DNA of 64,000 nt, taken from contig JASTWF010000334.1 in assembly GCA_030390025.1 (NCBI GenBank), positions 248,001-312,000 on the forward strand, given 5' to 3'. This document shows positions 1,690 through 36,335 of this stretch, in pieces. The DNA is from Squalus acanthias (lineage: Eukaryota). Below the pieces are notes generated by a model. That model was not told the origin of the DNA. It saw nothing but the letters and a program-made list of their open reading frames with translations, and did not search any database. The translations under genes were made by a program, and so were the position numbers. Position 1 is the stretch's first letter. Each line of letters starts with the position of its first letter.

Positions 1690-1874
1690 CTCATGTTGCC
1701 CTGAATAGAACATTGGAGAACAGGCAACTGGAGACAGAGACTGATCAGGATCAGCACCTTGAAAAACGTGGCGACAGTAGGAATGGACCTTGTGCCTACG
1801 GCTGGTTTCATTTTCATTACTTGTCCTTCTGTTACAAGTTCTTCACTTTCAGAAAGTCTTGGATAGAAGCTGAG
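1690..1874 (+). CDS. C-type lectin, first coding exon in window (pro-segment plus CTLD N-terminus)
   Basis: Acceptor ttccctttaactgcag|, donor GAG|gtaagc, phase 1 in and phase 0 out. Translates xHVALNRTLENRQLETETDQDQHLEKRGDSRNGPCAYGWFHFHYLSFCYKFFTFRKSWIEAE, matching the CTLD start C-x-x-GW...CY...W-x-x-AE. Confidence 0.93.
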
Positions 1875-2446
1875 GTAAGCCCAGAAGTCTCCAATTTAAG
1901 TTATTGGCTTTGTTCCTCATTGTTTCTAAATATGACTGGACGCAGAGAATGAAAAAATCTTCTTGTTTATATCTGGACAGTTCTGATTGACTCAGTGATT
2001 TCCATCAGTGGGTAACTTGATCTACGTTATATTCTACATTAAACACTGAGGGCACTGAACCCTACAGACAAGGACGTTCCCAGGTTCATTCATGGAGAGT
2101 GATGAGGGAGTTACAGCTGGTCTGACTGTCTCTGGATTAGAAAAGAGTAAAATCAGCGCGACTCCCTGGTCCTGATCACCATCCAGTGAAATTTTCTGCA
2201 AAATGCATTGTGTGGAGTTTTAGTGGGGACAGCACCTGCTGTTCAGATCACAGATGACAAGGTCCATTTAAAGGATCTGCTGTCAGCCCATTGAAAGGGC
2301 AAATAGTGTTAAAAACCCAACACTGTAACCATTCAGCTGAGTGTTCAGACATTTTCAAAAGCCTTCAAGATGCATCTAAGGTTTGGTTAGTCTTGTTGAC
2401 TGGAAATTTACATTGAATGGTTGCCACAGGTCACATTCATTGAATG

Positions 2447-3690
2447 GGGCAGTAATGGATTTGTTAAAGGCAAATCATATCTGAAAAACTTGATTGACTT
2501 CTTTGATGAAGTATCGGACAGGGATAATGAGAGTAGTGCAGCTGATGTTGTGTACATGGACTTCCAAAATGCATTTGAGAAACTACCACGTAACAGATTA
2601 GTTCGAAAAATTGAAACCCATGGGCAGTGGCAGCGTGGATACGAAATTAACTAAGGGACAGAAAGCAGAGGGTAGTGGTGAATGGTTGTTTTTCAGTCAG
2701 GAGGGAAATATACAGTGGTGTCCCCAGGATTCGGTGTTGGGACCACTGCTCTTTTTGATATCTATTAATGACCTGGACTTGGGTTTACAGGGTATAATTT
2801 CAAAGTCTGCAGATAACACAAAACTCAGAAATGTAGTAAACAGCGAGGATAGCAGCAAACTTGAAGATGACATTGACAGACTTGTGAAATGGGCAGGCAC
2901 ATTACAGATGACATTTAATGCGGAGAAGTGTGAAGTCATGCATTTTAAAAGGAAGAATGAGAGAAATTATAAACTAAATGGTACAATTTTAAAAGGGGTG
3001 CAGGAACAGATACACACATTCTTCACATACATAAATTTTTGAAGGTGGCAGGACAAGTTGATAAGACTGTTAAAAAGGCTTTAAAAATAGAGGTATAGAG
3101 TAGAAATACAAGGAAGTTATGCTAAACCTTTATAAATCACTGGTTCAGCCTCAGCTGAAGTATTGTGTCCAATTCTGAGCACCACACTTTAGGAAGGATA
3201 TCAAGGCCTTGAAGAGGGTGCAGAAAAGATTTACCTGAATCATACCAGGGATGAGGGACCTCAGTAATGTGGAGAGACTATAGCAACTGGGCTTCCTCTC
3301 CTTAGAGCAGAGAATGTTCAGGGGAGATTTAATAGAGGTGTTCAAAATCTTGAGTGGTATTGATATAGCGATAAAGTGTTTCCAGTGGTCGAAGGGTCAG
3401 AAACAGAAGGAAACTGATTTAATAATTAATTGGCAAAAGAACCAGAAGGGAGATGAGGAGAAATGTTTTTACACAGCATGTTGTTATGATCTGGAATGGA
3501 TGTCTTGAAAGGGTGGTTGAAGCAGATTCAATGGTAACTTTACAAGATAATTGAATAAATACTTGAATAGGAACATTTTCAGGGCAATGGTGAAAAGGCA
3601 GGGGATTGGGACTATTTGGATAGCTCTTTCAAAGAGTCAACACAGGCACGAGGGGCCAAATGGCCTCCTTCTGTGCTGTATGATTCTATA
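2447..3690 (+). mobile_element. 5'-truncated, degenerate CR1 LINE (RT to 3' tail)
   Basis: GFVKGKS, YMDFQNAF, SVLGPLLF and RGDLIEVFK fragments; ends in a tatgattcta-type tail. Confidence 0.92.
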
Positions 3691-4005
3691 ACAGGGAATG
3701 TTTCAACATTAAACATGGAGCAATATTGACCTAGGCACCGGACATGACAAAGACACACCCAGCCCAGTTGCCCCTGCAAAATCCTCCTCACTAACATCTG
3801 GGGATTTGTGCCAAAAAAAGGAGAGCTGTCCCACAGACTAGTTAAGCATCAGCCTGACGTAGTCATACTCACAGGATCATACCTTTCAGCCAATGTCCCA
3901 GACGCCTCCATCAGCATCCCTGGGCATGGCCTGTCCCAGCGGCAGGGCAGACCCACCAGAGGTGGCAGCACTGTGGTATGCAGTTGAGAGGGAGTGGCCT
4001 GGGAG

Positions 4006-4171
4006 CAATGCTCCCGTTTCGCGGCCGCGCAGTTGCACAGCTGTCTAAAGCTCACGAGCAGACCGCTTGCCAGTTTCTCAATGGAGAAACCGCGCATGTG
4101 CGGAAGTTTGAATAGATCACGCAGCCCCTTAAAGGGGCCGTGAACCCCCAAAATAATTAGAGGGAACATTG
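4006..4171. mobile_element. hAT-type MITE (166 bp)
   Basis: Terminal inverted repeats (TIRs) caatgctccc / gggaacattg, with an exact 8-bp TSD cctgggag (3998-4005, 4172-4179). Confidence 0.85.
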
Positions 4172-5726
4172 CCTGGGAGTCTTCAACAATGGTTCTGGAC
4201 CCCATGAAGTCTCATGGCTTCAGGTTAAACGTAGGCAAGGAAACCTTCTGCTAATTACTACCGACCGCCCTCCCTCAGCTAAAGAATCTGTACTCCTCCA
4301 TGTTGAACACCACATGGAAGAAGCACTGAGGGTATCAATGGCACAGAACATACTTTGGGTGGGTGACTTCAATGTCCATCACCAAGAGTGGCTTGGTAGC
4401 ACCACTACTGACAGAGCTGGCTAAGTCCTGAAGGACATAGCTGCCATACTGAGCCTGAAGCAGGTGGTGAGAGAACCAACACAAGTGAAAAACGTACTTG
4501 ACCAATTTACCTCTCGCAGATGGATCTGTCCATGACATTATTGGTAGGAGTGACCACCGCACAGTCCTTGTGGAGCCAAAAGATCTGTCTTTACACTGAG
4601 GACACCCTCCATCATGTTGAGTGGCACTACAGTAGTGAGAAAGGATCTCATAAGGACAGTAGTGAAAAGGGACCTTGGCTCAGAAGATCAGGAAGTAGAA
4701 TCAGTATGGGAGAAGATAAGAAACAACAAGGGACAGGAAACATTGGTGGGAGTAGATTATAGGCCCCCTAAGAGTAGCTATACCGTTGGACACACTATTA
4801 ATCAGTAAATAATAGGAGCTTGTAACAAAGCTCATGCAATCATTGTGGGAGACTTTAATCTTCATATTGACTGGGCAAATCAATTTGGAGGACGAGTTCA
4901 TGGAATGCATTCGAGACAGTTTCCCAGAACAATACTTCATGGAACCAACCAGGGAAGAAACTATTTTAGATCTTGTATTGTGTAATGAGACTGGGTTAAT
5001 TAGTAATCTCATAGTAAAGGAAACTCTGGGGAAGAGCAATCATAATATGATAGAATTTCACATTGGGTTTGAGAGTGAAATACCTCAGTCTAAAACTAGA
5101 TTCTTAAACTTAAATAAAGCCATTTACATAGGTATGAGGAATTAATTGGCTAAGGTAGATTAGGAAATTAGATTAAAAGGTATGACAGTAGATAAGCAAA
5201 CATTTAAAGAAATATTCCAAAATTTTCAATGAATATACATTCCATAGAGAAATAAAAATTCCACAGGAAAAATTAGCCATCTGTGGCTAAATAAAGAAGT
5301 TAAGGATAGTATTAGATTAAAAGAAGCTGATTATAATGTTGTGAAGAATAATAGCAAGCCTAAGGATTGGGAGAGTTTTAGAAACCAGCAAAGGATGACC
5401 AAAACATTGATGAAAAGAGAGAAAAAAGAATATGAGAGTAAACTAGCAAGAAATATTAAAACAGATTGTAAGAGCTTCTACAAGTATGCAAAAATGAAGT
5501 AAATAGCAAAGGTAAGCATTGGTCCCTTAGATGCTGAGACAGGAGAAATTATAATGGGGAATAAGGAAATGGCCGAGACTTTAAACAAATATTTTCTATC
5601 TGCTTTCACAGTAGAAGACACAAAAAACATACCAAAGTAATGGGGAACCAAGGGGCTAATGAGACTGAGCAACTTAAAGCAATTAAGATCAGCAGAGAAA
5701 AAGTGCTTGAGAAACTAATGGGACTT

Positions 5727-7118
5727 AGTGGGGAAACAAGTGGGAAAACTGCTGGAGTCCATCATAAAAGATGTAATAGCTGAGCACTTGGAAAACAGTG
5801 ACAGGATCGGACAAAGTCAACATGGATTTACAAAAGGGAAATCATGCCTGACTAATCTACTGGAATTTTTTGAGGATGTAACTGGTAGAATAGATAAGGG
5901 AGAACCAGTGGATGTGGTGTATTTGGACTTTCAGAAGGCTTTCGGTAAGGTCCCTCATAAGAGATTAGCTTGCAAAGTTAAAGCACATGGGATTGGGGAC
6001 AAGGTACTGATTTGGATAGAGAACTGGTTGGCAGACAGGAAGCAAAGAGTTGGAATAAACGGGTCTTTTTCCGAGTGGCAGGCAGTGACTAGTGGGGTAC
6101 CGCAGGGATCGGTGCTAGGACCCCAGTTATTCACAATATATATTCATGATCTAGACGAGGGAACTAGATGTAATATCTCCAAGTTTGCAGACGACACAAA
6201 GCTGGGTGGGCGTGTGTGCTGTGAGGAGGATGCAGAGAAACTCCAGTATGATTTGGACAGGTTGGGTGATTGGGCAGATGCATGGCAGATGCAGTATCAT
6301 GTGGATAAATGCGAGGTTATCCACATTGGTGGCAAAAACAGGAAGGCTGATTATTATCTGAACGGCAATAGATTGGGAAAAGGGGAAGTGCAACGAGACC
6401 TGGGTGTCCTTGTGCACCAGTCGCTGAAGGTAAGCATGCAGGTGCAGCAGGCGGTTAAGAAGGCAAATGGTATGTTGGCCTTCATAGCGAGAGGATTCGA
6501 ATACAGGAGCAAGGATGTCTTGCTGCAGTTGTCAGGGCCTTGGTGAGACCACACCTTGAGTATTGTGTGCAGTTTTGGTCGCCTTATCTGAGGAAGGATG
6601 TTCTTGCCATGGAGGGAGTACAGCGAAGATTCACCAGACTGATACCTGGGATGGCAGGAATAACGTATGAAGAGAGATTGGGTCGATTAGGCTTATATTC
6701 GCTAGAGTTTAGAAGAATGAGAGGGGATCTCATTGAAACTTATAAAATTCTAACAGGACTAGACAGACTAGATGCAGGAAGGATGTTCCCGATGGCGGGG
6801 GAGTCCAGAACCAGGGGTCACAGTCTAAGGATAAGGGGTAAGCCATTTAGGACTGAGATGAGGAGGAATTTCTTCACCCAGAGAGTGGTGAACCTGTGGA
6901 ATTCTTTACCATGGAAGGCAGTTGAGGCCAATTCATTAAATATATTCAAGAAGGAGTTAGATATATTTCTTAAGGCTAAAGGGATCAAGGGATATGGGGA
7001 GAAGGCAGGGACAGGGCACTGAATTTGGATGATCAGCCATGATCTCATTAAATGGCGGAGCAGGCTCGAGGGCCGAATGGCCTACTCCTGCTCCTATCTT
7101 CTATGTTTCTATGTTTCT
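5727..7118 (+). mobile_element. Young 5'-truncated CR1 (RT plus 3' tail)
   Basis: ORFs 5728-6546 and 6540-7022 (YLDFQKAF, GVPQGSVLGP, KFADDTKL); ctatgttt tail. Nearly identical to the 3' part of the 14251-18708 copy. Confidence 0.95.
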
Positions 7119-7249
7119 CTGACTAAAAGCCAACAAATCCCCTGGACCTGATGGCCTACATCCTAGGTTTCTAAAAGAGGTAGCTGCAGTGATCTTGGAT
7201 TCATTGGTTGTGATATTCCAAAATTCCCTATTAAGGAAGTCATAACAGG

Positions 7250-7392
7250 CAATGTTCCCTTTAATTTTTTTAACGCTCCGTGGCCCCTTTATGGGCCTGT
7301 GCAGGCCATTCAAAATATTGTGCATGTGGGTTTCTGCATTGAAAAGCCGGCAAGCCGCTGTGCAGGATCTGTGCAGCTTACAGGGAACATTG
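7250..7392. mobile_element. hAT-type MITE, same family as 4006-4171 in the opposite orientation
   Basis: TIRs caatgttccct / agggaacattg; degenerate 8-bp TSD ataacagg / gtaacaga. Confidence 0.75.
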
Positions 7393-8048
7393 GTAACAGA
7401 GCATTTGGAAAACCATAATATGATTAGCATCAACACGGTTTTATGAAAGGGAAATTGCGTTTAGCAAATTTTTTAGAGATTTTTGAGGATGTTACTAGCA
7501 GGGTAGATAAAGGGGAACCAGTGGATGCAGTATATTTGGATTTCCAAAAGGCATGCAATAAGGTGCCGCATAAAACGTTGTTACACAAGATAAGGGCTCC
7601 TGGGGTTGTGGGTAATATATTAGCATGGATAGAGGATTGGTTAACGGATAGAAAACAGAGAGTAGGAATAAACGGGTCATTTTCAGGTTGGCAGGCTGTT
7701 ACTAGTGGGGTGCTGCAAGGATCAATACTTGGGCCTCAGCTATTCACAATCTATATCAATGACTTAGATGAAGGGATCGAGTGCAATGTATCCAAGTTTG
7801 CTGATGATACAAGGCTAGGTGGGACAGTAAGCTGTGGGGAGAACACAAAGGGGGCGATTTTCCCGTTGGAGGCGGGTTTCGGTTTGGGCGGGTTCCAAAT
7901 CCGCCTCCACTGTCAGGTGGGAAAAATTTGCGATTTTCCCCTAATTGGCCAGTTAATTTCAGAGGTGTGGGTTCCCCTGGGCCAATTAGTCTTTTGGGAC
8001 TGAAACTCGCCTCTGCTGACATCACTTATCCAGCTTCATTTAAGGGCT

Positions 8049-8263
8049 AACAACAGAAAACGCTAGAAAAACTCAGCAGGCCAGGCAGCATCTGTGGAGA
8101 GAGAAACAGAGTTAACGTTTCAGGTCGAAAACCTTTCATCAGAACGTCTTCGACCTGAAATGTTAACTCTGTTTCTCTCTCCACGGATGCTGCCTGGCCT
8201 GCTGAGTTTTTCCAGCGTTTTCTGTTGTTATTTTGGATTTCCAGCATCCACAGTATTTTGCTA
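8049..8263. mobile_element. Penelope-derived fold-back element with hammerhead motif
   Basis: Long inverted arms plus a ~35-nt tail (gatttccagcatccacagtattttgc). 14-bp TSD ttcatttaagggct / ttcatttaagtgct (8035-8048, 8264-8277). Confidence 0.8.
8111..8145 (-). ncRNA. Minimal type I hammerhead ribozyme motif
   Basis: Minus strand reads gtt CTGATGA a aggt tttcg acct GAAA cg tt aac: core boxes, stem II, palindromic AACGTT stem III and short stem I. Confidence 0.75.
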
Positions 8264-8351
8264 TTCATTTAAGTGCTGTTTGTTGCCTTGGCTCATTCCA
8301 TTGGTTTTTGGTCGATGCTGCACCACCTCCTAACTTTTATCTCATTGAAGA

Positions 8352-8825
8352 ATGGCCAGCTCCAAGGCAAGGGCCTCCCCGAGGTTCTCGGATGAGGCGC
8401 TGGGTATCCTGGTTGAGGGGGTGAGAGCTAGCAGGGAAGTGCTCTTCCCCTCATATGGGAGGAAGAGGCCTCCCAAAGAAACCAAGGCTGTGTGGGTCCA
8501 ACTGGCAAGAGATATAACCCTTGGCAAAGCACAAGGAAGTGGGGGCTCCTCTCCAAGCACTCACACTTCCATGCCACTGCGTAGCCCTCGGTCAAAGCCC
8601 CACCAGAGTCTGCATCCAACTGAGATGGGCATCTCAGCCCCTGCACTGCCGCAGGATGAGCAGACATTTGGTGAGCCCTCACAGGCTCAGAAACCTAGAG
8701 GACGCCCGCCAAAGGTGTCGAAGCAGGAGCAGCATGAAAGTGAGCAAGGTGCCTCCACATCTGCTGAAGCCACAGGGGGAGCACTATGTAGGAGCACGCG
8801 TAAGAGAAAAATAAAGCACCATTAG
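8352..8825 (+). pseudogene. Harbinger Myb/SANT-like DNA-binding protein, internally deleted
   Basis: RASPRFSDEALGILVEGV...VLFP...KAVWVQLA is the trihelix/Myb-SANT start of the Harbinger second ORF; basic C-terminus RSTRKRKIK. Confidence 0.8.
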
Positions 8826-9079
8826 TCACAGGGGTAGGCTCTTTGGTGATTTTTTCTGTTTATTGATGAAATGCCATCCCTGTGTAAATGTATTAAAATG
8901 AGGTGATGGCAAACTGGTGGCGTGATGGCATCTGTTATTTCGGCTTAGGCAGCTCCACATTGCGGGCTCCGCGACACTTGCATGGTCAGGTTAGTGGTCA
9001 GAGTGAAAGGAGGCCAGAAAGTCATGTCCATTGTCTATCATGTGTTAAGAAGGAGCCAGTCACATGTGCCACAATGGGC

Positions 9080-10152
9080 AACCTATGCAAATCAGGCCAG
9101 GATGAGTGCTTCCCTTGCATCACGGGCAGCCATGTGCTCGCGCGCTGCTACTGCTCCTGGTAGATACGCCGCCACTCGGTCCTCCTCATCCTCCTCCTCA
9201 TCCTCCTCATCCTCATCTGAGGAGGCTATGAACTGAACCACTTGCTCATCAGGAAGCTGCAAGCCACGATGCTGTCATTAGCCACTTCTTCAGGGGGTAG
9301 CCCTTGTCACAAGAAGCCATCCATTAAGTTGGTTTGGCGGATTGAAGAGCATAGGAACACTGGAGCTCCGCAGGATGAACGAGTCATGGCAACTACCACA
9401 GAACTTGGCGCAAAAATGCAAAATCTCCTTCTTGTGGTTACACACCAGCTGTACGTTGAGGGAGTGGAAGCCCTTGCAGTTGAGAAAGATAGCTGGGTTG
9501 TGATGGGGTGCCCTAAGGGCCACATGTGTGCAGTCTATGACGCCCTAAACCATTGGCAAGCCTGCCATATTTGCAAAGCCAACTGAACACGCGGTTCTAC
9601 TTGCTTGATCCCTTGAGAAGTGCATGCAAATGTGCGCCTTTGCGAAAAGGGCATTGGTAACCTGCGTGATGCAACTGTGGGCGGCCGACTGGGAGATGCC
9701 ACTGATGTCTGCTGATGATCCCTGGAAGGAACCTGAGGCAAAAAGGTTGAGTGCGGTGGTGACTTTGACAGCCACTGGTAAGGGGTGTCCAGCCGTTCCT
9801 CTGGGCTCCAGGTTTGGTTGCAGCAGTGCGCAGGTGTCTCCGACAACCTCTCGTGAATCTCTCAGCCTCCTTTGGTACTGCTGCTCACTCATGTTGAGGT
9901 AGCTCATCCTCTGTCTGTAAACCCTGAGAGGGGGTATCTCCTGCGGCGATGTGCTGCCATGTGCTGGCACCTTCTGCCCTGTGCAGCATCAGGTGGGTGA
10001 GCAGGAGGTTGGCGCTCCTGCTGCTGTTGCTGCTGAGCTGCCTGGTTCTGCTGCTGCCGTGGCTGCTCCTCATCCGAATCTGAGCTCCATGATGAAAGGA
10101 AATAAATGGTTCCCATGCTGCTGGCAGATACCTTCGTTGGGGAAGCGCTCAC
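9080..10152 (-). pseudogene. Harbinger (HARBI1-like) DDE transposase, frameshifted and internally deleted
   Basis: [58 protein letters not shown] and GSCHDSFIL motifs; acidic C-terminal run near 9180-9220. Confidence 0.9.
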
Positions 10153-11211
10153 TCCAAGCGGGGAGAGGGTTTTCCAAGGAGGTCCTACAGTTGAGAGATA
10201 GAAGCTGCAGCATCTCCGACTTCGGTAGGGCTGCTAAAAGTGCTGAAAGACCTGTGGAACAAATGTTCTGCCACCTGCAACTGCTCCCTGATGAAAGCTC
10301 CGTTTTAATGGTGGAGCTGCAGCTGTGAGGAGGCCATCCACTTGTCAACCCGCCAGGATCAGCTGGTGTGGTTTAGGAGGGTCGTGCAACACGTGCAAAA
10401 TGTGGCAAAATAACAAAGGCCTGTCAAAATAGGATTATAGAGGTCCTTAACGACTATTTAAGGGTCTTAACTACCTCTCCCGACTGATGGAGGCGGGACC
10501 GAATTGCACCCGTCAAACCCGCTTCCGGCATAATTGCGCAGAGGCGGGTTGGAGGCGGGTTCCGAACCCGGGCTCACTTTTTGCGATTTTCCCAACAGTC
10601 CCGCCTCCAAACCCCCCTCCTCGGGGCTGGGAAAATCGCGGACAAAGGGCTGGATTTTGTCAGCACCGAGGAGGTGGGTATGGAGGCGGGACTGCCGGTA
10701 AAGTTGCAGAATTTGGGGGCGGGTGGCAAACCCGCCCCCATCCCGCCTCCGTGCCCTCTTGCCAGGAGGCGGGAAGCTGTCCTGCCCCGGGTCCCATCTC
10801 CTCAAGGCGGGAAAGGAATTAAAGCCTATTAACTGCCTGTCAACAGGTAGTTAACCAGCAGAAAATAGGATTATCGCCATTTTTCCTTCCAAAGTGCAGG
10901 CTTCCCGACCTCGGGGAACCCCGCCAGGGTGTAGGAGATCAGTAGAAGGTCGGAGGGGGCCGGAGGGGTCTGAAAGTGCAATGTAGAGGTGAGTGATGGG
11001 TGCAAGTGTGGAGTGGTAAGTATGTAAGGTGAGTGTAAAGTGTTATAAAATGTTCACTTACCTTTGTTTCTGCCTACAGCCTTCAGCCGCTGTGGAGCCG
11101 GAGTCCCCGACATCTCCATTGTAGATTTCACAGACTGGCTGTTGGATCCTCCGAACCAACAGCCAGGTGATTTCTGCCAAGTTGAAAGGTTTGATGAGTC
11201 CTGAACACAAG

Positions 11212-12105
11212 GGGGTAAAAATTCACTTGGTTGCGCCACCCGTTAGCGCCTTAAGAGGGTGCTAATGGGGCGCAAAGCCGCTAACGCCCGGGCGCAGCGA
11301 TGTTTGCGCCGCTCGAGAACTTAACTTGAGATTGTGCGGCGGCACTAAAACTTACCGCTGCGACCACCTGCGCGCGCACATTGTGACGTCATTCCATGGT
11401 GCAACGCCCTTGGGGCGCCCCGTAGCGGAAATTGAGTGGCGCCCCCTGCCTTACCGCCTGGCGCTTCCAACGACCAGAAGACTGGAACGCTATCAATCGC
11501 TGTGGGGCTGGGGGGGGGCGCTATTTAAAGGGGGCCTCTCCCTGTCTTTTATTGTTGGTGGCATTTTTGAACTACGCATTCTGAGAGAGAGAGGGAGAGA
11601 CTTCTGGAGAGATTCAACGTTGTGTGAAGGAGTTTTGGGTACTGAGCAGCACTTTGCAGGTTCATTTTGATTTGCCATTCCTTGTATCGATTTAGCAGAG
11701 ACCGTGGGAGCTGCACTCTGAGCTCTTTGCCTGGTGCTCTCCATTGTTCTTTCCAGCACATTTGATGTGCAAGTCTCTCCAGGCCGAGATTCAAGGCAGC
11801 AATGAACAGGATGTGGATGGAAAGCAAGATTAACCATCCCCTTTAAGAACTGGCCGGTGCCATTGTGTGTGTGTTCCATTGCTGACTGACATTACATGAG
11901 CTTCGCCAGCGCTCTGAGTTAGCGCCTCACTGCTCGGCCTTTGCGCCTTAAGAGAGGTGTGCAGCGCCTGCTTTAGCGCTCCACTCACCTCCCGGGGCGG
12001 TAAAAGTGAAGTTTCCCGTCAGTGCCGATAATTAGCGCCAGGCGCTAATATTTGCGTCCGGACGATATTTGCGCCCCAAATGGGGCGCGACCTAATTTCT
12101 ACCCC
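11212..12105. mobile_element. Non-autonomous Harbinger-type element C (894 bp)
   Basis: TIRs ggggtaaaatt / aatttctacccc, 3-bp TSD aag, gcgcc-rich subterminal repeats; second copy at 49629-50521. Confidence 0.85.
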
Positions 12106-12173
12106 AAGGTCTCATCAAACAACAGAGAATGTCAGTGTTTGACAGCTTCACAGAGCTGTCAAACGATGACATT

Positions 12174-13665
12174 ATAGAATCATAGAATCATAGAAAGTTA
12201 CAGCACGGAAGGAAGCCATTTCGGCCCATCGTGTCTGCGCCGGCCAGCAAAGAGCTATCCAGCCTAACCCCACTTCCTAGCTCTTGGTCCGTAGCCCTGC
12301 AGGTTAGAGCATCCCAAGTGCACATCCAAGTACTTTTTAAATGTGGTTAGGTTTCCTGCCTCTACCACCCTTTCAGGCAATGAGTTCCAGACCCCCACAA
12401 CTCTCTGGGTGAAGAAATTTCCCCTCAAATCCCCTCTAAATCTTCCCCCAATTACTTTAAATCTGTGCCCCCTAGTTTTTGACCCCTCTGCTAAGGGAAA
12501 TAGGTCCTTTCTATCCACTTTATCTACGCCCCTCATAATTTTATACACCTCAATAAGGTCTCCCCTCAGCCTCCTCTGTTCCAAGGAAAACAGACCCAGC
12601 CTATCCAGTCTTTCCTCATAGCTAAGATTCTCTACTCCCGGCAACATCCTTGTAAATCTCCTCTGTACCCTCTCTAGTGCAATCACATCCTTCCTGTAAT
12701 GTGGTGACCAGAACTGCACGCAGTACTCTAGCTGAGGCTTAACTAGTGTTTTATACAGTTGAAGCATAACCCCCTTGCTCTTGTATTCTATGCCATGGCT
12801 AATAAAGGCAAGCATTCCGTATGCCTTCTTAACCACCTTATCTACTTGGCCTGCTACCTTCAGGGATCTGTGGACATGCACTCCAAGGTCCCTTTGTTCC
12901 TCTACACTACTCAGTGTCCTACAATTTAATGTGTATTCCCTTTCCTTGTTAGCCCTCGCCAAATGCATTACCTCACACTTCTCCGGATTGAATTCCATTT
13001 GCCACTGTTCTGCCTACCTGACCAATTTATTGATATCTTCCTGCAGTCTACAGCTTTCTTCTTCAGTATCAACCACACAGCCGATTTTAGTATCATCTGC
13101 AAACTTCTTAATCATACCCACTATATTCAAGTCAAGATCGTTGATGTATACCACAAAAAGCAAGGGACCTAGTACTGAGCCCTGTGGAACCCCACTGGAA
13201 ACAGCCTTCCAGTCACAAAAACACCCATCAACCATTACCCTCTGCTTCCTGTCTCCAAGCCAGTTTTGAATCCAACTTGACACTTTGCCTTGGATCCCAT
13301 GGGCTTTTAACTTCGTGACCAGTCTGCCATGTGGAACCTTATCAAAAGCCTTGCTAAAGTCCATATACACTACATCAAATGCACTACCCTCATCTACCCT
13401 CTTTGTTACCTCCTCGAAAAATTCAATCAAGTTTGTCAGACACGACCTTCCCTTAACAAATCCGTGCTGACTATCCTTGATTAATCCGTGTCTTTCTAAA
13501 TGAAGATTTATCCTGTCCTTCAGAATTCTTTCCAATAATTTTCCCACCAGTGAGGTTAGGCTGACCAGCCTGTAATTACTCAGTCTATCCTTTTCTCCCT
13601 TTTTAAACAAGGGTACCACATTAGCAGTCCTCCAGTCCTCCGGCACCACACCTGAAGCCAGAGAG
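12174..13665 (-). mobile_element. 5'-truncated CR1 LINE
   Basis: ORFs 13014-13703 and 12264-12998 (YMDFSKAFD, GVPQGSVLGP, FADDTK, RGDLIEVYK); atagaatc tail. Confidence 0.95.
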
Positions 13666-17280: not shown

Positions 17281-17322
17281 TTTCCTCTGTTTCCCTGCAC
17301 AGGTTCCCAACCCCCTGCCATT

Positions 17323-23565: not shown

Positions 23566-23653
23566 GTAACATTGTCTGAGTTACTATATCACAAATTGTT
23601 AATTGGAACAGAAATATTCATTTTGAAATGATGACTTTATTTCTGTCTTTCAG

Positions 23654-23762
23654 CTGTGGACTTTTCTTTGGACTGATGGATCTTCATTTGATTTCACAAA
23701 ATGGTATGTGCATCAGCCCGATAATCATCAGGTAACGGAGAACTGTGTGCAAATGAATTACG
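23654..23762 (+). CDS. C-type lectin, third coding exon in window (QPD motif)
   Basis: Acceptor ttctgtctttcag|, donor G|gtaagt, 109 nt, phase 0/1. Translates LWTFLWTDGSSFDFTKWYVHQPDNHQVTENCVQMNY. Confidence 0.95.
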
Positions 23763-23859
23763 GTAAGTTGATACAAGTGTCATGGAAACAGTATTTTATT
23801 GGAAATTAATTCCAGAAAAATGGATAGATCAGAGAGGCAGAGAGCATCGCAGGAAGATT

Positions 23860-24566
23860 GAGGAACATAAATACAGCGCAAGCGCGGAGTGAGAGCGACA
23901 GAGAGCATTGTGGGAGATGGAGGAACATAAATACAGCGCAGGCGCGGAGAGCGAGGGACAGAGAGCATTGTGGGAGATGGAGGAACATAAATACAGCGCA
24001 GGCGCAGAGAGCGAGGGACAGAGAGCATTGTGGGAGATGGAGGAACATAAATACAGCGCAGGCGCAGAGAGAGAGCGACAGAGAGCATTGTGGGAGATGG
24101 AGGAACATAAATACAGCGCAGGCGCAGAGAGAGAGCGACAGAGAGCATTGTGGGAGATGGAGGAACATAAATACAGCGCAGGCGCAGAGAGAGAGCGACA
24201 GAGAGCATTGTGGGAGATGGAGGAACATAAATACAGCGCAGGCGCGGAGAGAGAGCGACAGAGAGCATTGTGGGAGATGGAGGAACATAAATACAGCGCA
24301 GGCGCGGAGAGAGAGCGACAGAGAGCATTGTGGGAGATGGAGGAACATAAATACAACGCAGGCGCAGAGAGAGAGCGACAGAGAGCATTGTGGGAGATGG
24401 AGGAACATAAATACAACGCAGGCGCAGAGAGAGAGCGACAGAGAGCATTGTGGGAGATGGAGGAACATAAATACAACGCAGGCGCAGAGAGAGAGCGACA
24501 GAGAGCATTGTGGGAGATGGAGGAACATAAATACAGCGCAGGCGCAGAGAGAGAGCGACAGAGAGC
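23860..24566. repeat. 60-bp minisatellite, ~12 near-identical units
   Basis: Unit gaggaacataaatacagcgcaggcgcagagagagagcgacagagagcattgtgggagatg, which stacks exactly in the 60-nt lines. Confidence 0.97.
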
Positions 24567-24705
24567 GTCGCAAACGAACACAGAATGAAAAAGTGAAGCA
24601 GTGATGTCACAAGCAGCGTGGAGGGTGCAGCCCGAAAATTACAGATAGATATTTATGAAGTGGATTTGGTAATTGATAATAAGTTCGTTTAAATATTTAC
24701 TTATA

Positions 24706-24990
24706 AAAATGGAAATTGCTGGAAATACTCAAGAGGTCAGGCAGCATCTGTGGGGAGAGAAACAGAGTTAACGTTTCAGGTCATTGACCTTTCATCAGAA
24801 CTGGCAAAGGTTCGAGATGTAACAGGTTTTAAGCAAGTCAAAGGAGAAGTTGTTCAATGTAAGAACAAGTTCAGCCAGGAGGAGGACTGTAGTGGTGGAT
24901 AGGGATTGATTGGGCCTCCATTCCAGGATGAAGGGCCCTCCTGGTAGGGAATGGAGGTGCAGAGGGACTGGTCATCCATGGTGAAAAGAA
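24706..24990 (-). mobile_element. Penelope-like remnant: hammerhead-bearing terminus plus RT fragment
   Basis: Minus strand CTGATGA a aggtca a tgacct GAAA cgttaac (24767-24801). LFTMDDQSLCTSIP resembles the Penelope RT motif D-V-x-S-L-(F/Y)-T-S-I-P. Confidence 0.75.
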
Positions 24991-26608
24991 CATTTTGGTG
25001 AAAATTTAGCATACTGTATTCGCTGCTGGTAATGATTTTGCTGTTGCCATTTATAGCTCCTCTAGAACCATTTTTTGTTTCTTTACTTGTCCTATTAGCA
25101 CTCCCTGGGTATGCCCTGTCCCACCAGCAGGACAGACCCACCAGATGTGGCGGCACAGTGGTATACAGTCAGGAGGGAGTGGCCCTGGGAGTTCTCAACA
25201 TTGACTTCGGACCCCATGAAGGCTCATGACATCAGGCCAAACATGAGCAAGGGAACCTCCTGCTGATTAACATCTACCACCCTCCCTCAGCTGCTGAATC
25301 AGTACTCCTCCATGTTGAACACCACTTGGAAGAAGCACGGAGGGTAGCAAGAACACAGAATTTACTCTGGGTGGGGAACTTCAATGTCCATCCCCAAGAG
25401 TGGCTCGGTAGCACCTATACTGACCAAGCTGGCTAAGTCCTGAAGGCCATAGCTGTCAAACTGGGCCTGCGGCAGGTGGTGAGAGAATCAACATGAGGGA
25501 AAAACCTACTTGACCTCATTCGCACCAATTTACGTGTCGCAGATGCATCTGTCCATGACAGTATTGGTAGGAGTGACCACCGCACAGTCCTTGTGGAGAC
25601 AAAGCCCCGTCTTCACACAGAGGACACCCTCTATCATATTATGTGGCACTACCACCATGGGATAGATTCAGAACAGAGCTAGCAGCTCCAAACAGGGCAT
25701 CCATGAGGTGCTGGGGTCATCAACAGCAGCAGAATAGTGTTTTAACGTCAATCTGTGGCCTCATGGCCCAGCATATCCCTCACTCTACCATTACCATCAA
25801 GCCAGACGACTGACTCTGGCTCAATGAGGAATGTAGAAAAGCATGCCAGGAGCAGCACCAGACGTACCTAAAAATAAAGTGCCAACAAGGTGAAGCTACA
25901 ACACAGGACTACATACATGCTAAACAGCAGGAAAAGCATGCTATAGATAGAGCTAAACAATCCCATAACGAACGGATCAACTCAAAGCTACACAGTTCTG
26001 CCACATCTAGTCATGAATGGTGGTGGACGATTAAACAACTAATGGGAGGAGGAGGCTCCATGTACATCCCCATCCTCAATCATGGCGGATCCCAGCATGC
26101 GAGTGCAAAAGACAAGGCTGAAGCGGATAATCCATAACGGCCTCTTCCTGAGCTCCCACCACCACAGAAGCTAGTCTTCAGCCAATTCGATTCACTCCAC
26201 GTGATTTCAAGAAATGGCTGAGCGCACTATATAAAGCAAAGGCTATGGGTCCCGACAACATCCCGGCTGTCGTGCTGAAGACTTGTGATCCAGAACAAGC
26301 CATGCCTCCAGCCAAGCTGTTCCAGTATAGCTGGCATCTACCCGACAAAGTGGAACATTGCCCAGGTATGTCCTGTCCACAAAAAGCAGGACAAATATAA
26401 TCCAGCCAATTATCGCCCCCATCAGTTTACTCTCAATCATCAGCAAAGTGATGGAAGGTGTCGTTGACAGTGCTATCAAGCAACACTTACCAATAACCTG
26501 CTCACCAATGCCCAGTTTTGCTTCCGCCAAGACCACTCGGTTCCAGACCTATTGCAGCTTTGGTCCAAACATGGACAAAAGAGCTGAACTCCAGAGGTGA
26601 GGTGAGAG

Positions 26609-29600
26609 TTTATTTTTATTCGTTCATGGGATGTGGGCGTCGCTGGCATTTATTGCTCATCCCTAATTGCCCTTGAGAAGGTGGTGGTGAGCCGTCTTCT
26701 TGAACCGCTGCAGTCCGTGTGGTGAAGGTACTCCCACAGTGCTGTTAGGGAGTTCCTAGATTTTGACCCCGCGACGATGAGGGAATGGCAATATATTTCC
26801 AAGTCAGGATGGTGTGTATCTTGGAGGAGAACTTGCAGGTAGTGGTGTTCCCATGCGCCTGCTGCCCTTGTCCTTCTAGGTGGTAGAGGTCGCGGGTTTG
26901 GGAAGTGTTGCTGAAGAAACTTTGTCGAATTGTTGCAGTGCATCTTGTAGATGGTCCACACTGCAGCCACAGTACGCCGGTGGTGGAGGGAGTGAATGTT
27001 TAAGGTGGTGGATGAGGTACCAATCAAGCGGGCTGCTTTGTCCTGGATGGTGTTGAGCTTCTTGAATGTTGTTGGAGCTGCACTCGTCCAGGCATGTTGA
27101 GAGTATTCCATCACACTCCTGACTTGTACCTTGTAAATGGTGGAAAGGCTTTGGGGAATAAGGAGGCCAGAGAATACCCTGCCTCTGACCTGCTCTTGTC
27201 GCCACAGTATTTATGCGGCTGGTCCAGTTATGTTTCTGGTCAATGGTTACCTCAAGGATGTTGATAGTGGGGGATTCGGCGATGGTAATGCCGTTGAATG
27301 TCATGGGGCGGTGGCTAGACTCGCTTGTTGGAGCTAATCATTGCCTGGCACATGTGTGGCGTGAATGTTACCTGCCACTTATCAGATCAAGCCTGAATGT
27401 CGTCCAGGCCTTGCAGCATGCAGGCACAAACTGCTTCATTATCTGAGGAGTTGTGAATGGCGCTGAACACTGTGCAATCATCAGCGACCATCCCCACTTC
27501 TGACCTTATGATGGAGGGAAGGTCATTGATGAAGCAGCTGAAGATGGTTAGGCCTAGGACACTGCCCTGAGGAACTCCTGCAGTGATGTCCTGGGGCTGA
27601 GATGATTGACCTCCAACTACCACAACCATCTTCCTTTGTGTTAGGTATAACTCCATCAAGTGGAGAGTTTTCCCCCTGATTCCCATTGACTTCAATTTTA
27701 CTAGGGCTCCTTGATGCCACACTCAGTCAAATGCTGCCTTGATGTCAAGGGCAATGACTCTCACCTCACCTCTGGAATTCAGCTCTTTTGTCCATGTTTG
27801 GACTAAATCTGTAATGAGATTGGGAGCCGAGTGGTCTTGGCGGAACCCAAACTGAGCATCGGTGAGAAGGTTATTACTGAGTAAGTGCCGCTTGATAGCA
27901 CTGTCGACGACACCATCTATCACTTTGCTGATGATTGAAAGTATGGGGCAGTAATTGGCTGGATTTGATTTGTCCTGCTGTTTATGGACAGGACATACCT
28001 GGGCAGTTTTCCACATTGTCGGGTGGATGCCAGTGTTGTAGCTGTACTGGAACAGCTTGGCTAGAGGCGCGACCAGTTCTGGAGCACAAGTCTTCAGCAC
28101 GACAGCGTTGATGTTGTCAGGGCCCATAGCCTTTGCTGTATCCAATGCGCTCAGCCGTTTCTTGATATCACACGGAGTGAATCAAATTGGCTGAAGACTG
28201 GCTTCTGTGATGGTGGGGACCTCGGGAGTAGGCCAATATGGATCATCCACTTGGCACTTCTGGCTGAAGATGGTTGCAAATACTTCAGCCTTGTCTTTTG
28301 TGCTCGCATGTTGGGCTCCGCCATCATTGAGGATGGGGATATTCATGGAGCCTCCTCCTCCCGTTAGATGTTTAACTCTCCACCACTATTCACGACTGGA
28401 TGTGGCAGGACTGCAGAGCTTTGATCTGATCTGTTGATTGTGGAATCGCATAGCTCTGCCTATAGCATGCTGCTTTCACTGTTTAGCATGCATCTAGTCT
28501 TGGGTTGCAGCTTCCCCAGGTTGGCACCTCATTTTTAGATACGCCTGGTGCTGCTCCTGGCATGCTCTTCTACACTCCTCTTTGAACCAGGGTTGGTCTC
28601 CTGGCTTGATGGTAATGGTAGAGTGAGGGATATGCTGGGCCATGAGGTGCCACACAACATGATGGAGGGTGTCCTCAGTGTGAAGATGGGACTTCATCTC
28701 CACAAGGACTGTGCAGTGGTCACTCCTACCAATGCTGTCATAGACAGGTGCATCTGTGACAGACAGATTGGTGAGGATGAGGTCAAGTACATTTTTCTCT
28801 CTTGTACACTGAAGTCCCCCACCCAGAGTACATTCTGTGCCCTTGCTACCCTCAGTGCTTCTTCCAAGTGATGTTCAACAGGGAGGATAACTGATTCATC
28901 AGCTGAGGGAGGGCGGTAGGTGGTAATCAGCAGGAGGTTTCCTTGCCCATGCTTGACCTGAAGCCATGAGCCTTCATGGGGTTTGGAGTCAATGTTGAGG
29001 ACTCCCAGGGCCACTCCCAACTGTATACCACTGTGCCGCCACCTCTGGTGGGTCTGTCCTGCCGGTGGGACAGGTCATACCCAGGGATGGTGATGGAGGA
29101 GTTTGGGACATTGGCTGAAAGGTATGATTCTGTGAGTATGACTATGTCAGGCTATTGCTTGACTAGTCTGTGGGACAGCTCTCCCAATTTTGGCACAAGT
29201 CCCCAGATTATCGACTGGGCTGGGTGTGCCATTTTCATGTCCTAATCTGGTGCCAGGTTGATGCCAGGTGGTCCGTCTGGTTTTATTCTTATTATTGCTT
29301 CTCGTAGCGGTTTGTTACAACTGAGTGGCATGCTTGGCCGTTTCAGCGGCAGTTAAGTCAACTACATTGCTGTGGGTCTGGAGTCACATATAGGACAGAC
29401 CAGGTAAGGACGGCAGATTTCCTTCCCTAAAGGACATTAGTAAACAATCCAATAGCTTCATGGTCATCATTACTGATACTAGCTTTTTATTCCAGATTTA
29501 TTTAATTAACTGAATTCAAATTCCCCAGCTGCCTTGGTGGGATTATGAACTCACGTCTCCGGTCATTAATCCAGGCCTCTGGATTACTAGTCCAGTAACA

Positions 29601-29620
29601 TAACCACTATGCTACCGTTC
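26609..29620 (-). mobile_element. Apparently full-length second-family LINE (~3 kb) with a tRNA-like 5' head and no ORF1
   Basis: 3' tail at 26609-26680, RT ORF pieces at 27387-28145, endonuclease start (NxxGLVPKLGELSHRL...PDIVILTESYL) near 29125-29210, and a SINE-like leader at 29270-29620. Confidence 0.88.
29535..29618 (-). promoter_or_regulatory. tRNA-derived Pol III internal promoter (A box, anticodon arm, degenerate B box)
   Basis: Minus strand: TAGCATAGTGG (A box), ctgga-CTAGTAA-tccag (5-bp stem, 7-nt loop, AGT anticodon), gagttcataatccc (B-box-like). Confidence 0.7.
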
Positions 29621-30794
29621 ATGATTGCCCTTGACATCAAGGCAGCATTTGACTGAGTGTGGCATCAAGGAGCCCTAGTAAAATTGAAATCAATTGAAAT
29701 CAGGGGGAAAACTCTCCACTTGATGGAGTCATACCTAGCACAAAGGAAGATGTTTGTGGTTGTTGGAGGTCAATCATCTCAGCCCCAGAACATCGCTGCA
29801 GGTGTTCCTCAGGGCAGGGTCTCAACCATCTTCAGCTGCATCATCAATGACCTTCCCCCCAACATAAGGTCAAAAGTGGGGATGTTCGCTGATGATTGCA
29901 CAGTGTTCAATTCCATTCGCAACTCCTCAGATAATGAAGCAGTCCATGCCCGCATGCTGCAAGACCTGGACGACATTCAGGCTTGGGCTGATAAGTGACA
30001 ATTAATATTGGTACCACACAAGTGACAGGCAATGACCATCTCCAACAAGAGTGAGTCTAACCACCGCCCCTTGACATTCAACGGCATTACCATCACCGAA
30101 TCCCCCACCATCAACATCCTGAGAGTCACCATTGATCAGCAACTTAACTGGACCAGCCACATAAATACTGTGCCTTCAAGTACAGTTCAGAGGCTGAGTA
30201 TTCTGCAGCGAGTGACTCACATCATGACTCCCCCAAACCTTTCCCCTAAACCTTTCCACCATCTACAAGGCACAAGTGAGGAGTGTGACAAAATAGTCAC
30301 CACTTGCCTGGATGAGTGCAGTTGCAACTACACTCAAGAAGCTGGACACCATCCAGGACAAAGCAACCCGCTTGATTTGCTCCCCATCCACCACCTTAAA
30401 CATTCACTCCCTCCACCACCGGCGCACCGTGGCTGCAGTGTGTACCATCTATACAATACACTGCAGCAACTCGCCGAGGCTTCTTTGGCAGAACCTCCAA
30501 AACCCGCAAACACTACCACCTAGAAGGACAAGGGCAGCAGGTACATGAGAACACCAAGACGTGCAAGTTCCTCTCCAAGTCACACACCATCCTGACTTGA
30601 AAATATATCTCCGTTCCTTCATTGTCGCTGGGTCATAATCCTGGAAATCTTTCCCTAACAGCACTATGGGAGCACACAGATGGCAGTGATTCAAGAAGGC
30701 AGCTCACCAGCACCTTCTCCACGGCAATTAGGGATGGCCAATAACTGCTGGCCTTGCCAGCGACGCCCACATCCTATGAACAATTAAAATAAAA

Positions 30795-31056
30795 GATAGA
30801 GGAACGTACACTGGGTGTAACACTGTAGACAGAGAAATGTACACTGGTTGTAACACTGCAGATAGAGGAACGTACACTGGGTGTAAAACTGTAGATAGAG
30901 GAACGTACACTGGGTGTAACACTGCAGATAGAGGAACGTACACTGGGTGTAACACTGCAGCTGGAGAAATGTACACTGGGTGTAACACTAGATAGAGGAA
31001 CGTACACTGGGTGTAACACTGCAGGTAGAGAAATGTACACTGGGTGTAACACTACA
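30795..31056. repeat. ~33-bp minisatellite, ~8 units
   Basis: Unit gatagaggaacgtacactgggtgtaacactgca with variants, starting right after the LINE A-rich tail. Confidence 0.92.
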
Positions 31057-31621
31057 GTTTCTCCCTCCACTCAATTGACCATCTCTGTGGATTCTGCAGT
31101 GATGAGGCTAAACTGAGACCTGTGTTATAATTGGCCCATATTTACTGAACTGATCCTGACATGTACTGAAGCCATACTCCGAATGGGCAGGACTCCTCTC
31201 TGTGTTTACACAACATTCCCAGAAAATTATTCAACCTTCTTGTATCCGGCGCTCACTTTACTGATGCACCAAAAGCCCCTCCCGCTTTTTCACAGGGTTT
31301 CAATTCCCAGATTTAAAATTATATAATCTGGACACAGAGAATCTAACTCCAGAAATCACAGCCTTTGCTCCAATCGTGTGAAGTCCGTGCAGTGGGGAAG
31401 GTGATTGTTTAGCCCTGGTGGTGAGGCCTTGCTGTCCACCCCACACTGGGAAACCCAGCCCAGGGTGAGCTCGCAATCTTCAGTCAGGAACTGTCCAAAC
31501 CCCACTGAATATTGTGAGGTTTCCAGATTTCAGTGAGACACACACTGACTGAGTGCACACGGCAACACAACAGGAAGTGCATCACTTTATTTACAAGGTG
31601 AACTCATAGTATCATAAGTTT

Positions 31622-34600
31622 TAGGTTAGCTATGGAAAAGGACAAAGAGCAATCTAGAGTCAAAATATTTAACTGGAGGAGAGCCAATTTCAGTGGGTTG
31701 AGAACAGAGCTGGCCCGGGTAAATTGGAATCAAAGATTGGCAGGCAAAACTGTAAATCGAACAATGGGCTGCCTTTAAAGAGGAGATGATTCAGGTACAG
31801 TCAAGGTATATTCCCACGAGGGGGAAAGGTAGGGCAACCAAAGCCCTGGATGATGAAAGAGAGAGAAAGTAAGATAAAGCGGAAAAAAGGGGCATATGAC
31901 CGATGTTTGGTTGAGAATACAAGTGAGAACCAGGCTGAATACAGAAAGTTCAGAGGGGAAATGAAAAAGGAAATAAGAGGGGAAAAGAAGGAGTATGAGA
32001 ATAGACTGGCAACTAACATAAAAAGAAATCCAAAAGTTTTCTATAGGCACATAAATAGTAAACGGGTAGTAAGAGGAGGGGTGGGGCTGATTAGGGACCA
32101 AAAAGGAGACCTACGCATGGAGGCAGAGGGTATGGCTGAGGTACTTTGCATCTGTCTTCACCAAGGAAGAAGACACTGCCAAAGTCACAGTGAAAGAGGA
32201 GGTAGTTGAGATATTGGATGGGATAAAAATTGATAAAGAGGAGGTGCTAGAAAAGCTGGCTACACTTAAAGAAGTAGATAAGTCACCAGGACCGGATGAG
32301 ATGCTTCCTCGGATGCTGAGGGAAGTAAAGTTGGGAATTGCAGAGGTACTGGCCATAATCTTCCAATCCTCCTTGGACACGGGGGTGGTGCCAGAGAGCT
32401 GGAGAATTGTAAATGTTACACCCTTGTTCAAAACAAGGTGTAAATATAAACCCAGCAACTACAGGCCAGTCAGTTTAACCTCAGTGGTGGGGAAGCTTTT
32501 AGAAACAATAATCCGGGACAAAATTAACAGTCACTTGGACAAGTGTGGATTAATTAAGGAAAGCCAGCATGGATTTGTTAAAGGCAAATCGTGTTTAACC
32601 AACTTGATTGAATTTTTTGATGAGGTAACAGAGAGGCTTGATGGGGCCAATGCGTTTGATGTGGTGTACATGGACTTCCAAAGGCATTTGATAAAGTGCC
32701 ACATAATAGGCTGGCCAGCAAAGTTAAAGCCCATGGAATAACAGGGACAGTGGAACCTTGGATATGAAATTGGCTAAGTGACAGAAAACAGATAGTAGTT
32801 CTGAATGGTTGTTTTTCAGACTGGAGGAAGGTATACAGTGGTGTTCCCCAGGGATTGGTACGAGGACCACTGCTTTTCTTGATATATATTAATGATTGGG
32901 ACTTAGTTGTACAGGGCACTATTTCAAAATTTGCAGATGACACAAAACTTGGAACTGTAGTGAACAATGAGCAGGATAGGGATAGACTTCAAGAGGACAT
33001 AGACAGGCTGGTGGAATGGGCGGACACGTGGCAGATGAAGTTTAATGCAGAAAAGTGTGAAGTGATACATTCTGGAAGGAAGAACGAGGAGAGGCATTAT
33101 AAACTAAAGGATACAATTCTAAAGGAGGTGCATGAACAGAGAGACCGGTGGGTATATGTGCACAAATCGTTGAAGGTGGCAGGACAGGTTGAGAAAGCGG
33201 TTAAAAAAACAGAGGGGATCCTGGGCTTTATAAATAGAGGCAATGGGCTGGATTTTCTCAATGGAGACGAGTTGGAGGTGGGACTGCTGCTTATCGGGTC
33301 AGTGTCCCACCTCCATCATCTTCTGACCAACCAGAGGGATTTTCCCCTGATTGACCTTGTTAAGCCTGCCCTGCGGGCTCAGCAGGCCAATTAGGGAGGA
33401 AGTCACTGACAGAGCACGTCAACGTCTGACGTGCTATCTGTCAAGACTTCTTGAAAGAAGAAATGTTAGCGTTTGACAGCTCTGTGAAGCTGTCAAACAC
33501 TGACATTCTCTGTAGTTTGATGAGTCCTTGTGTTCAGGACTCATCAAACCTTTCAACTTTGTCGATTTCAGATGGCTGTTGGGTCGGAGGATCCAACAGC
33601 CAGTCTGTGAAATCGACAAGGAAGATGTCTGGTCTCCCGATCCAGGGTGGATGAAGGCTGTAGGAAGAAAACAAGGTAAGTGAAGATTTTTTGACACTTA
33701 ACACTCACCTTACATACTTACCACTCCACACTTGCACCCATCACTCACCTCTACATCTTACTTCCAGGTGCCTCCGACCCCCGCAGATCTCCTTCACGTC
33801 TCCTCCAACCCGGCGGGGTTCTCCGAGGTCGGGAAGCCTTCACCTGAGAAGGCAAAATGGCACTAATCCTTTTTTCTGCCTGATAACTACCTGTTAACAG
33901 GCCGTTAAAAGTATTTAATGCCTTTCCCGCCTCCAGGAGACGGGGCCTGAAGTAGCACATCTCCCTGCCTCCTGACAAAAGGGCACGGAGGCAGGATGGG
34001 GGCGGGTTTGCCATCCGCCCGACTTTCTGCTACTTTACTGGCAGTCCCGCCTCCATGCCCACCTCCTCGAGGCTGAGAAAATCCAGCCCATAGAGTCCAA
34101 AAGCAAGGAAGTCCTGATGAACCTGTATAAAACACTGGTTTGGCCTCAACTGGAGTATTGTTTACCCAATTCTGGGCACCGCACTTTAGGAAGGATGCAG
34201 AAAAGATCTACAAGAATGGTTCCAGGGATGAGAGACTTCAGCTACGTGGATAGACTGGAGAAACTGGGGTTGTTCTCCTTGAGAGCAGAGAAGATTGAGA
34301 GGAGATTTGATAGAGGTGTTCAAAATCATGAGGGGTCAGGACAGAGTCGATAGAGAGAAACTGTTCCCATTGGCGGAAGGGTCAAGAACCAGGGGACACA
34401 GTTTTAAGTGATTGGCAGAAGGTCCAAAGGTGACATGAGGAAAAACCTTTTTATGCAGCGAGTGGTTGGGATCTGGAATGCGCTGCCTGAAAGGGTGGTG
34501 GAGGCAGATTCAATCATGGCTTTCAAAAGGGAATTAGATAAGTACCTGAAAGAAAAAAATTGCAGGGCTGCGGAGAAAGGGCGGGGGAGTGGGACTAGCT

Positions 34601-34670
34601 GAAGTACTCTTGCAGAGAGCCAGCAGGGCCTACTGTGCTGTAACCATTCTATGATTGTATGAATCTATGA
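31622..34670 (+). mobile_element. CR1 LINE ORF2 remnant, split by element B at 33245-34089
   Basis: KSPGPD, NYRPVSLTS, YMDFQ and KFADDTKL motifs; resumes atagagtccaaaagc at 34090; ttctatga tail. Confidence 0.92.
33245..34089. mobile_element. Non-autonomous Harbinger-type element B, intact (845 bp)
   Basis: Perfect TIRs gggctggattttctca / tgagaaaatccagccc. Interrupts the CR1 at ggca|tagag. Confidence 0.88.
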
Positions 34671-34796
34671 TCAAAAGACAGGGAAAATTAATGGATCACA
34701 GACACTGACTCCCATAGAGAAAGGATGAAACAATTAAACAAATATCTGCCTGATTCGCTGAGGAGTAAATGTTGGATTCAATTTTTCTATTTCCAG

Positions 34797-34870
34797 GTGC
34801 TGTAGGTGAATGGAGTAATGCGCCCTGTGGTATACAATATCCTTTCGTTTGCTCCTACAAACTGGGCTGA
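34797..34870 (+). CDS. C-type lectin, terminal coding exon
   Basis: Acceptor atttttctatttccag|, phase 1 matching the previous exon. Translates (G)AVGEWSNAPCGIQYPFVCSYKLG*, giving the W-x-x-x-x-C...F-V-C CTLD end. Confidence 0.93.
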
Positions 34871-34990
34871 AGTTAGAAGAATCTGCCGATGCTCCACGGA
34901 TCCTTTCCAGGAGTGGATTCAGTGCCTCGATTTGTTTGTAGCCGCAGTCACTGCCTGTGGTGACTGTACTGACTTAGTCTCTCAGCCAAT

Positions 34991-34996
34991 AATAAA
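34991..34996 (+). terminator. Polyadenylation signal of the lectin gene
   Basis: AATAAA 120 nt after the stop codon, followed ~20 nt later by GT-rich tgtgtgtttgatgctgtgtg. Confidence 0.75.
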
Positions 34997-36223: not shown

Positions 36224-36335
36224 GGTCAACAGGCCGAACTCCACCAGCAGGTCTCACCAGCTACATTTTGCTCCTTCCCCATTTCCTGCTCCAATATGCC
36301 CAGGTAGTCCCACTCTCACTGGGTCTTGTATAAGG

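Follow-up and report, generated by a model that had tools for sequence, protein, structure and literature searches.

Within a 64,000-nucleotide stretch of the genome of Squalus acanthias (contig JASTWF010000334.1, positions 248,001 to 312,000 of the forward strand; hereafter the window), four short exons spread over 33 kb are predicted to encode an intact long-form, single-domain C-type lectin domain. The gene that they form is a new but ordinary member of a known multi-copy family of shark lectins, annotated in several shark genomes as 'lectin-like'. We consider it probable that it is a functional gene for a predicted secreted defence lectin whose calcium-dependent sugar binding is weakened or shifted, and the value of the finding lies mostly in annotation, in that it gives a region rich in repeats an accurate gene model. 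The parts of the model are as follows.

1690..1874, plus strand: exon A, phase 1/0; a linker or pro-segment ending in EKR, then the first two cysteines of the long-form lectin domain
1875..23424, plus strand: intron 1, 21550 bp, GT-AG; fragments of long interspersed nuclear elements (LINEs) and one near-complete CR1-type element
23425..23565, plus strand: exon B, phase 0/0; third cysteine, helix 2 and WIGL at 23539-23550
23566..23653, plus strand: intron 2, 88 bp, GT-AG
23654..23762, plus strand: exon C, phase 0/1; long loop, QPD at 23714-23722 and a glutamate preceding the fourth cysteine
23763..34796, plus strand: intron 3, 11034 bp, GT-AG; an alternative in-frame AG would prolong it to 34805
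34797..34870, plus strand: coding part of the last exon (D), phase 1/stop; WSN at 34811-34819, the last two cysteines and TGA
34871..35040, plus strand: predicted 3' untranslated region; AATAAA at 34991-34996, then a GT-rich tract, placed from sequence only and with an unmapped cleavage site

The peptides of exons A to D (61, 47, 36 and 23 residues) carry 2, 1, 1 and 2 cysteines, respectively, and join into a spliced frame of 169 residues, including two split codons, that holds the C-type lectin-like superfamily core (six long-form cysteines and WIGL) and whose stop lies directly behind the lectin domain. All six splice sites are canonical, and every coordinate, splice dinucleotide, phase (1/0, 0/0, 0/1, 1/stop) and intron length of the initial annotation, together with its frame of about 169 amino acids, six cysteines, WIGL, QPD and the AATAAA at 34991, was recovered when checked on the sequence. 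At the density of AATAAA in the window, the chance of meeting one within 125 nt of the stop is about 5%.

That these exons belong together is best seen with a profile built from 12 aligned shark homologues, from which the window's own sequence was left out. It matches the four-exon read-through with an E-value of 5e-77, and among the 2767 stop-free six-frame segments of the window only the four exon segments fall below 0.001 (1.8e-22, 3.2e-21 for exon A, 4.8e-14 and 1.4e-4), the next best segment reaching 1.4; the chain is therefore real, ordered, on one strand and single-copy within the window. An exon-C-like match at 11106-11168, which lies inside a repeat and has a profile E-value of 1.4, was rejected. 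The search with the Pfam family Lectin_C (PF00059) that the initial annotation had proposed also returned the gene, with exon B above the curated cut-off (E-value 1.1e-4) and exon C as a weak match (0.077), while exons A and D on their own match no Pfam family; three of the homologues match Lectin_C with E-values of 1e-20 to 1e-22.

A protein search with exon B returned two 'lectin-like' proteins of the horn shark (Heterodontus francisci), one of which, used as a query in turn, retrieved nine proteins at E-values of 1e-10 or lower from horn, epaulette and bamboo sharks. Exon A found no match as a word-index query; in an exhaustive search it gave 10 matches, nine of them from sharks or rays, which add proteins of the sevengill shark, sawfish, skate and stingray, and a repetitive reindeer protein among these matches was taken as chance. 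The nearest protein is the horn shark XP_067915847.1 (P0004), identical at 104 of 163 aligned residues (63.8%), with 34 of 61 identical residues in exon A (residues 20-77 of P0004), 37 of 47 in exon B (78-124), 23 of 36 in exon C (125-160) and 11 of 23 in exon D (162-184). Identity to the other proteins is 52.6-59.5% for those of the horn shark, 55.6% for that of the sevengill shark and 45.8-49.7% for those of the bamboo and epaulette sharks, except for P0028 with 50.6%. The window gene and P0004 share the architecture behind the leader, the exon boundaries (at residues 20, 78, 125 and 162), the six cysteines, WIGL and EKR, and differ in the predicted mature part, which is near neutral in the window gene (isoelectric point 7.2) and basic in P0004 (9.4). 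Membership in the shark 'lectin-like' family follows from the family being nearest over all four exons and from the common pro-segment and exon boundaries. The horn shark proteins of this name are predicted RefSeq records, for none of which we saw a functional test, and their neighbouring accession numbers suggest that the genes form a tandem cluster. An AlphaFold model of P0004 was not used because of its low confidence (mean predicted local distance difference test score 49.7), and a role in venom, which rests solely on automatic names of homologues, was rejected. We found no study of this lectin cluster, nor of a WSN motif, in literature that covers few subscription journals.

In a tree of the whole protein with 14 shark homologues the window gene stands beside P0004 (support 81/86), and trees of its parts raise the question of whether exon A and exons B to D might come from two paralogues, or from a recombined or misassembled locus. 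The tree of exon A places it with P0008 and P0009 (87/90) and that of exons B to D with P0004 (88/82), and 21.5 kb of repeats separate exons A and B; however, none of these groupings, that of the whole protein included, reaches the support bar, P0004 is long-branched in the exon A tree, and on this strand the window offers exon A no alternative B, C or D exon behind it and exon B no alternative A exon ahead of it. With no spare exons at hand, one gene is the most economical interpretation, and a composite of two genes appears highly improbable.

Among known lectin groups, the soluble single-domain lectins of fishes (ladderlectin, nattectin-like and antifreeze-like) and the mammalian groups VII (REG) and XII (EMBP) likewise have one long-form domain. 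REG proteins are not known to have QPD, which the window gene keeps. The marks of group XII are absent from it, as its neck is weakly acidic (net -2 over 27 residues) and its WIGL segment is without the fourth-place glycine found in EMBP and in most antifreeze lectins (PMC514892). The gene has all three introns (upstream of the first cysteine, after WIGL, and between the second and third cysteines) that this source describes as common to groups VII and XII and the antifreeze-like fish lectins, a layout that by the same account does not on its own place a sequence in one group (PMC514892). Among proteins of solved structure, the family profile has its best single-domain relatives in galactose-binding snake lectins, the lectin domain of aggrecan, lithostathine (REG1) and REG4, and P0004 scores 0.95 with Atlas clusters that bear the automatic names nattectin-like and ladderlectin-like; both kinds of match are family-level likeness and not orthology. 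Of the initial reading as a secreted single-domain lectin of the ladderlectin, nattectin or REG kind, the layout stands, the intron positions agreeing with it, while the closest relatives form the shark 'lectin-like' cluster and not ladderlectin, nattectin or REG in the strict sense.

A C-type lectin is known from the skin of bullhead sharks (PMC10707392, PMC8444439). The one described from the Japanese bullhead shark (Tsutsui et al.) comes from the genus that also gives our best matches. Among shark lectins of its type, we found functional work for this one alone. According to the titles of the articles on it, it reportedly binds sugars broadly and induces or amplifies coagulation. This family context is the ground on which a defence role is proposed for the window gene.

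The feature that sets the window gene apart is its calcium motif. It reads QPD/WSN where P0004 reads QPN/WND, and this combination is absent from the 16 homologues examined, 15 of which keep the aspartate of WND (the sixteenth is without this end); serine in the middle place of the motif occurs in two horn shark paralogues. If the calcium sites are laid out as in mannose-binding protein A, which we assume, site 2 has retained its glutamine, aspartate and glutamate (from QPD and ENC) and has exchanged the asparagine and aspartate of WND for serine and asparagine, so that of the marks of galactose-type lectins QPD and the glutamate that follows it are present and WND is not. The glutamate behind the WIGL segment has become leucine (valine in the nearest horn shark protein), for which reason the accessory calcium sites have probably been lost, too. 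The asparagine and aspartate of WND are described as direct calcium ligands, and QPD as a mark of galactose-type binding at site 2 that requires both of them as well (PMC7618208, PMC12842671); galactose binding by the predicted protein is not to be assumed from QPD alone. In a table of bivalve lectins, those with WSD are calcium-dependent sugar binders, and a few with another third residue, asparagine among them, depend on calcium as well (PMC12842671), and the change to WSN thus lowers the odds of sugar binding but does not remove them.

The same residues bear on whether the product is instead a secreted lectin-like protein without sugar binding at site 2, which would bind a protein or another surface in the manner of REG and of many lectin-like domains and might, for example, help clotting at skin wounds. 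Both ligand positions of WND are changed, one of them an aspartate shared by all 14 homologues, and the residues of the fold are kept; the coagulation reported in the titles on the bullhead shark skin lectin would suit such a function. On the other hand, QPD and its following glutamate are retained, and the calcium dependence of WSD lectins and of some with asparagine in third place, as tabulated in PMC12842671, makes the loss of the motif less than decisive. We regard this explanation as unlikely. A bolder and equally doubtful version holds that selection would have kept the fold and QPD while calcium site 2 was rewired, so that a sugar-binding lectin would have become a convertase-activated binder of a protein or surface, a shark parallel to the switch seen in REG and other lectin-like domains.

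The reading as a functional defence lectin draws support from conservation, counted on 14 of the 16 homologues, P0026 and P0028 being left out because their C-termini are aberrant or missing. The window gene keeps 28 of the 29 columns that are invariant in these homologues and carries the majority residue in 51 of 56 conserved columns as opposed to 53 of 104 variable ones (Fisher P 1.2e-7), and its terminal branch is of ordinary length (0.22, median 0.21). Conserved columns kept in this way fit a working gene. The pattern documents long-term purifying selection rather than present activity, and the gene is likely functional. The initial annotation had proposed precisely such a gene with a signal-peptide exon further upstream; conservation backs the first part, and the second is carried by the homologues, which begin with a hydrophobic leader of 19 residues that ends exactly where exon A starts (aligning from residue 20). 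Because the leader stops there and none lies in positions 1-1689, its exon is likely to be found upstream of the window. Candidates within 1-1689 amounted to noise-level matches and one non-hydrophobic frame within LINE sequence, and were rejected.

A leader supplied by that exon would route the predicted protein into the secretory pathway. Exon A then contributes a segment of 27 residues, net charge -2, that ends in EKR, a motif present in 11 of the 16 homologues and of the dibasic kind cut by proprotein convertases; a cut after its KR (1764-1769) would leave about 142 residues of about 16.5 kDa, near neutral in charge, and the mature protein would act as a pattern-recognition lectin on surfaces or in body fluid. 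For the window gene we infer secretion, cleavage after KR and a defence role from its sequence and its relatives.

Transcripts of relatives agree with the exon chain. From three runs presumed to be RNA and picked by species label, we obtained 18 contigs that align to 23345-23890 at 80% likeness. They span exons B and C and leave the introns uncovered, save for two small pieces in one run, and in all three runs these related transcripts pass from exon B to exon C with the 88-bp intron removed and the length unaltered. Contigs with loose ends at 23423, just before exon B, terminate in the 15 letters with which exon A closes, and each run has one contig that extends past exon C into sequence resembling exon D (22 of 30 letters alike, aligned by eye). 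This sequence reads WND and lacks exon D's initial nine bases, joining at the position that corresponds to 34806. A second in-frame AG acceptor at 34804-34805, 9 nt downstream of the first, would start exon D at 34806, and since the nine-base difference fits it, either AG could serve as the last acceptor; P0004 agrees with the form that starts at 34797, and homologues of both lengths occur. The three exon junctions are thereby confirmed in relatives, not in the window copy.

A number of points weigh against a functional defence lectin. Neither a leader exon nor a start codon was found in positions 1-1689, two thirds of which are repeat. Junction reads, by which the initial annotation had proposed to check the chain, are matched at all three junctions by relatives, but none of the 18 contigs resembles this copy at 99% (2 are 95-99% alike, 4 are 90-95% and 12 are below 90%), so that they represent paralogues or the genes of a relative and not the expression of this copy. 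The aspartate of WND, invariant in the 14 homologues, is the sole invariant column that the window gene has lost, and WSN could also reflect incipient decay or a mistake in the assembly; the conservation count, for its part, is blind to a recent loss of function. One-to-one orthology with P0004 is only weakly supported by a placement of 81/86.

Several of these observations would also be expected if the gene were a member of a tandem family that has recently fallen silent, with its frame still open, its 5' exon or promoter lost or unused, and WSN as a first sign of decay. Apart from the missing leader exon and the lack of a contig from this exact copy, such an origin would suit a multi-copy family with turnover, and a crude simulation leaves the frame without a stop in 60% of runs when neutral change is 2% and in 29% when it is 5%. 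At 10% change, however, it survives in only 8% of runs, and the six canonical splice sites, the poly(A) signal, the unlengthened branch and the concentration of changes in variable columns all speak for a maintained gene; we judge recent silencing to be quite improbable.

Beyond annotation, the gene has a modest biological value. Mannose-binding lectin and ficolin are reported missing in cartilaginous fishes (PMC6795676), and some of the sugar-based defence of these animals may accordingly fall to the soluble lectins of this expanded family. A natural QPD/WSN variant alongside QPD/WND paralogues, moreover, offers a clean test of the importance of the WND aspartate.

The exons sit in unique islands between repeats, and the 'transposon debris' of the initial annotation is an apt description of the rest: other repeats of the window, or its LINE proteins, account for 80% or more of intron 1 and 86% or more of intron 3, and RVT_1 or endonuclease domains occur in many of the frames. 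For the whale shark, CR1-like LINEs are reported from introns of more than 88% of genes, and introns are unusually long (bioRxiv 10.1101/443036), by which measure a span of 33 kb is ordinary for sharks; LINEs and other elements would have inserted passively into introns 1 and 3. The near-complete CR1-type LINE of intron 1 (about 14250-18300, minus strand), broken by in-frame stops, has an ORF1 (open reading frame 1) with a GDSL esterase domain, an endonuclease and a reverse transcriptase, and an inverted copy at 5739-7118 shares 95.5% identity with its 3' part. A second inverted pair of LINEs (22015-23355 and 26613-27940, 84% over 1368 bp) flanks exons B and C, its upstream member ending 70 bp ahead of the exon B acceptor. 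Inverted repeat pairs can promote exon skipping or back-splicing. Among the transcript contigs, an unspliced one (run X2, 96% alike) spans 23372-23452, that is, the end of intron 1 and the start of exon B, and diverges from the window near the end of this upstream LINE, which suggests that a close copy without the insertion exists.

Intron 3 contains two minisatellites, one of 11 units of 60 bp (23897-24566, 98% matches) that begins 135 bp past the exon C donor, and one of 8 units of 33 bp (30794-31057). A G+C-rich unique stretch of intron 1 (8274-10457) has a weak Myb/SANT match (E-value 0.02), and a frame on its opposite strand, which has no Pfam match, presumably resembles a Harbinger-type transposase; the stretch is probably a decayed DNA transposon. 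Downstream of the gene, at 36326-37330, lies the remnant of a Penelope-like element, in which a GIY-YIG domain is recognised (36759-37124, minus strand, E-value 8e-5); the end of the remnant recurs with 98% identity in a fold-back piece of intron 1 (20849-21389); Rfam has no matches in the window, and thus no ribozyme at this remnant. A single 23-bp satellite, in mixed units of 22 and 23 bp, occupies 39307-47717 (about 372 copies) and 55011-62535 (about 332 copies). These two arrays, 7.3 kb apart and about 90% alike, run in opposite orientation, which gives rise to a mirror-image GC skew. Beside the second of them, an open frame of 402 residues on the minus strand (62795-64000) continues past the end of the window and carries an integrase core (rve, E-value 3.7e-18), and is probably a long terminal repeat (LTR) retrotransposon.

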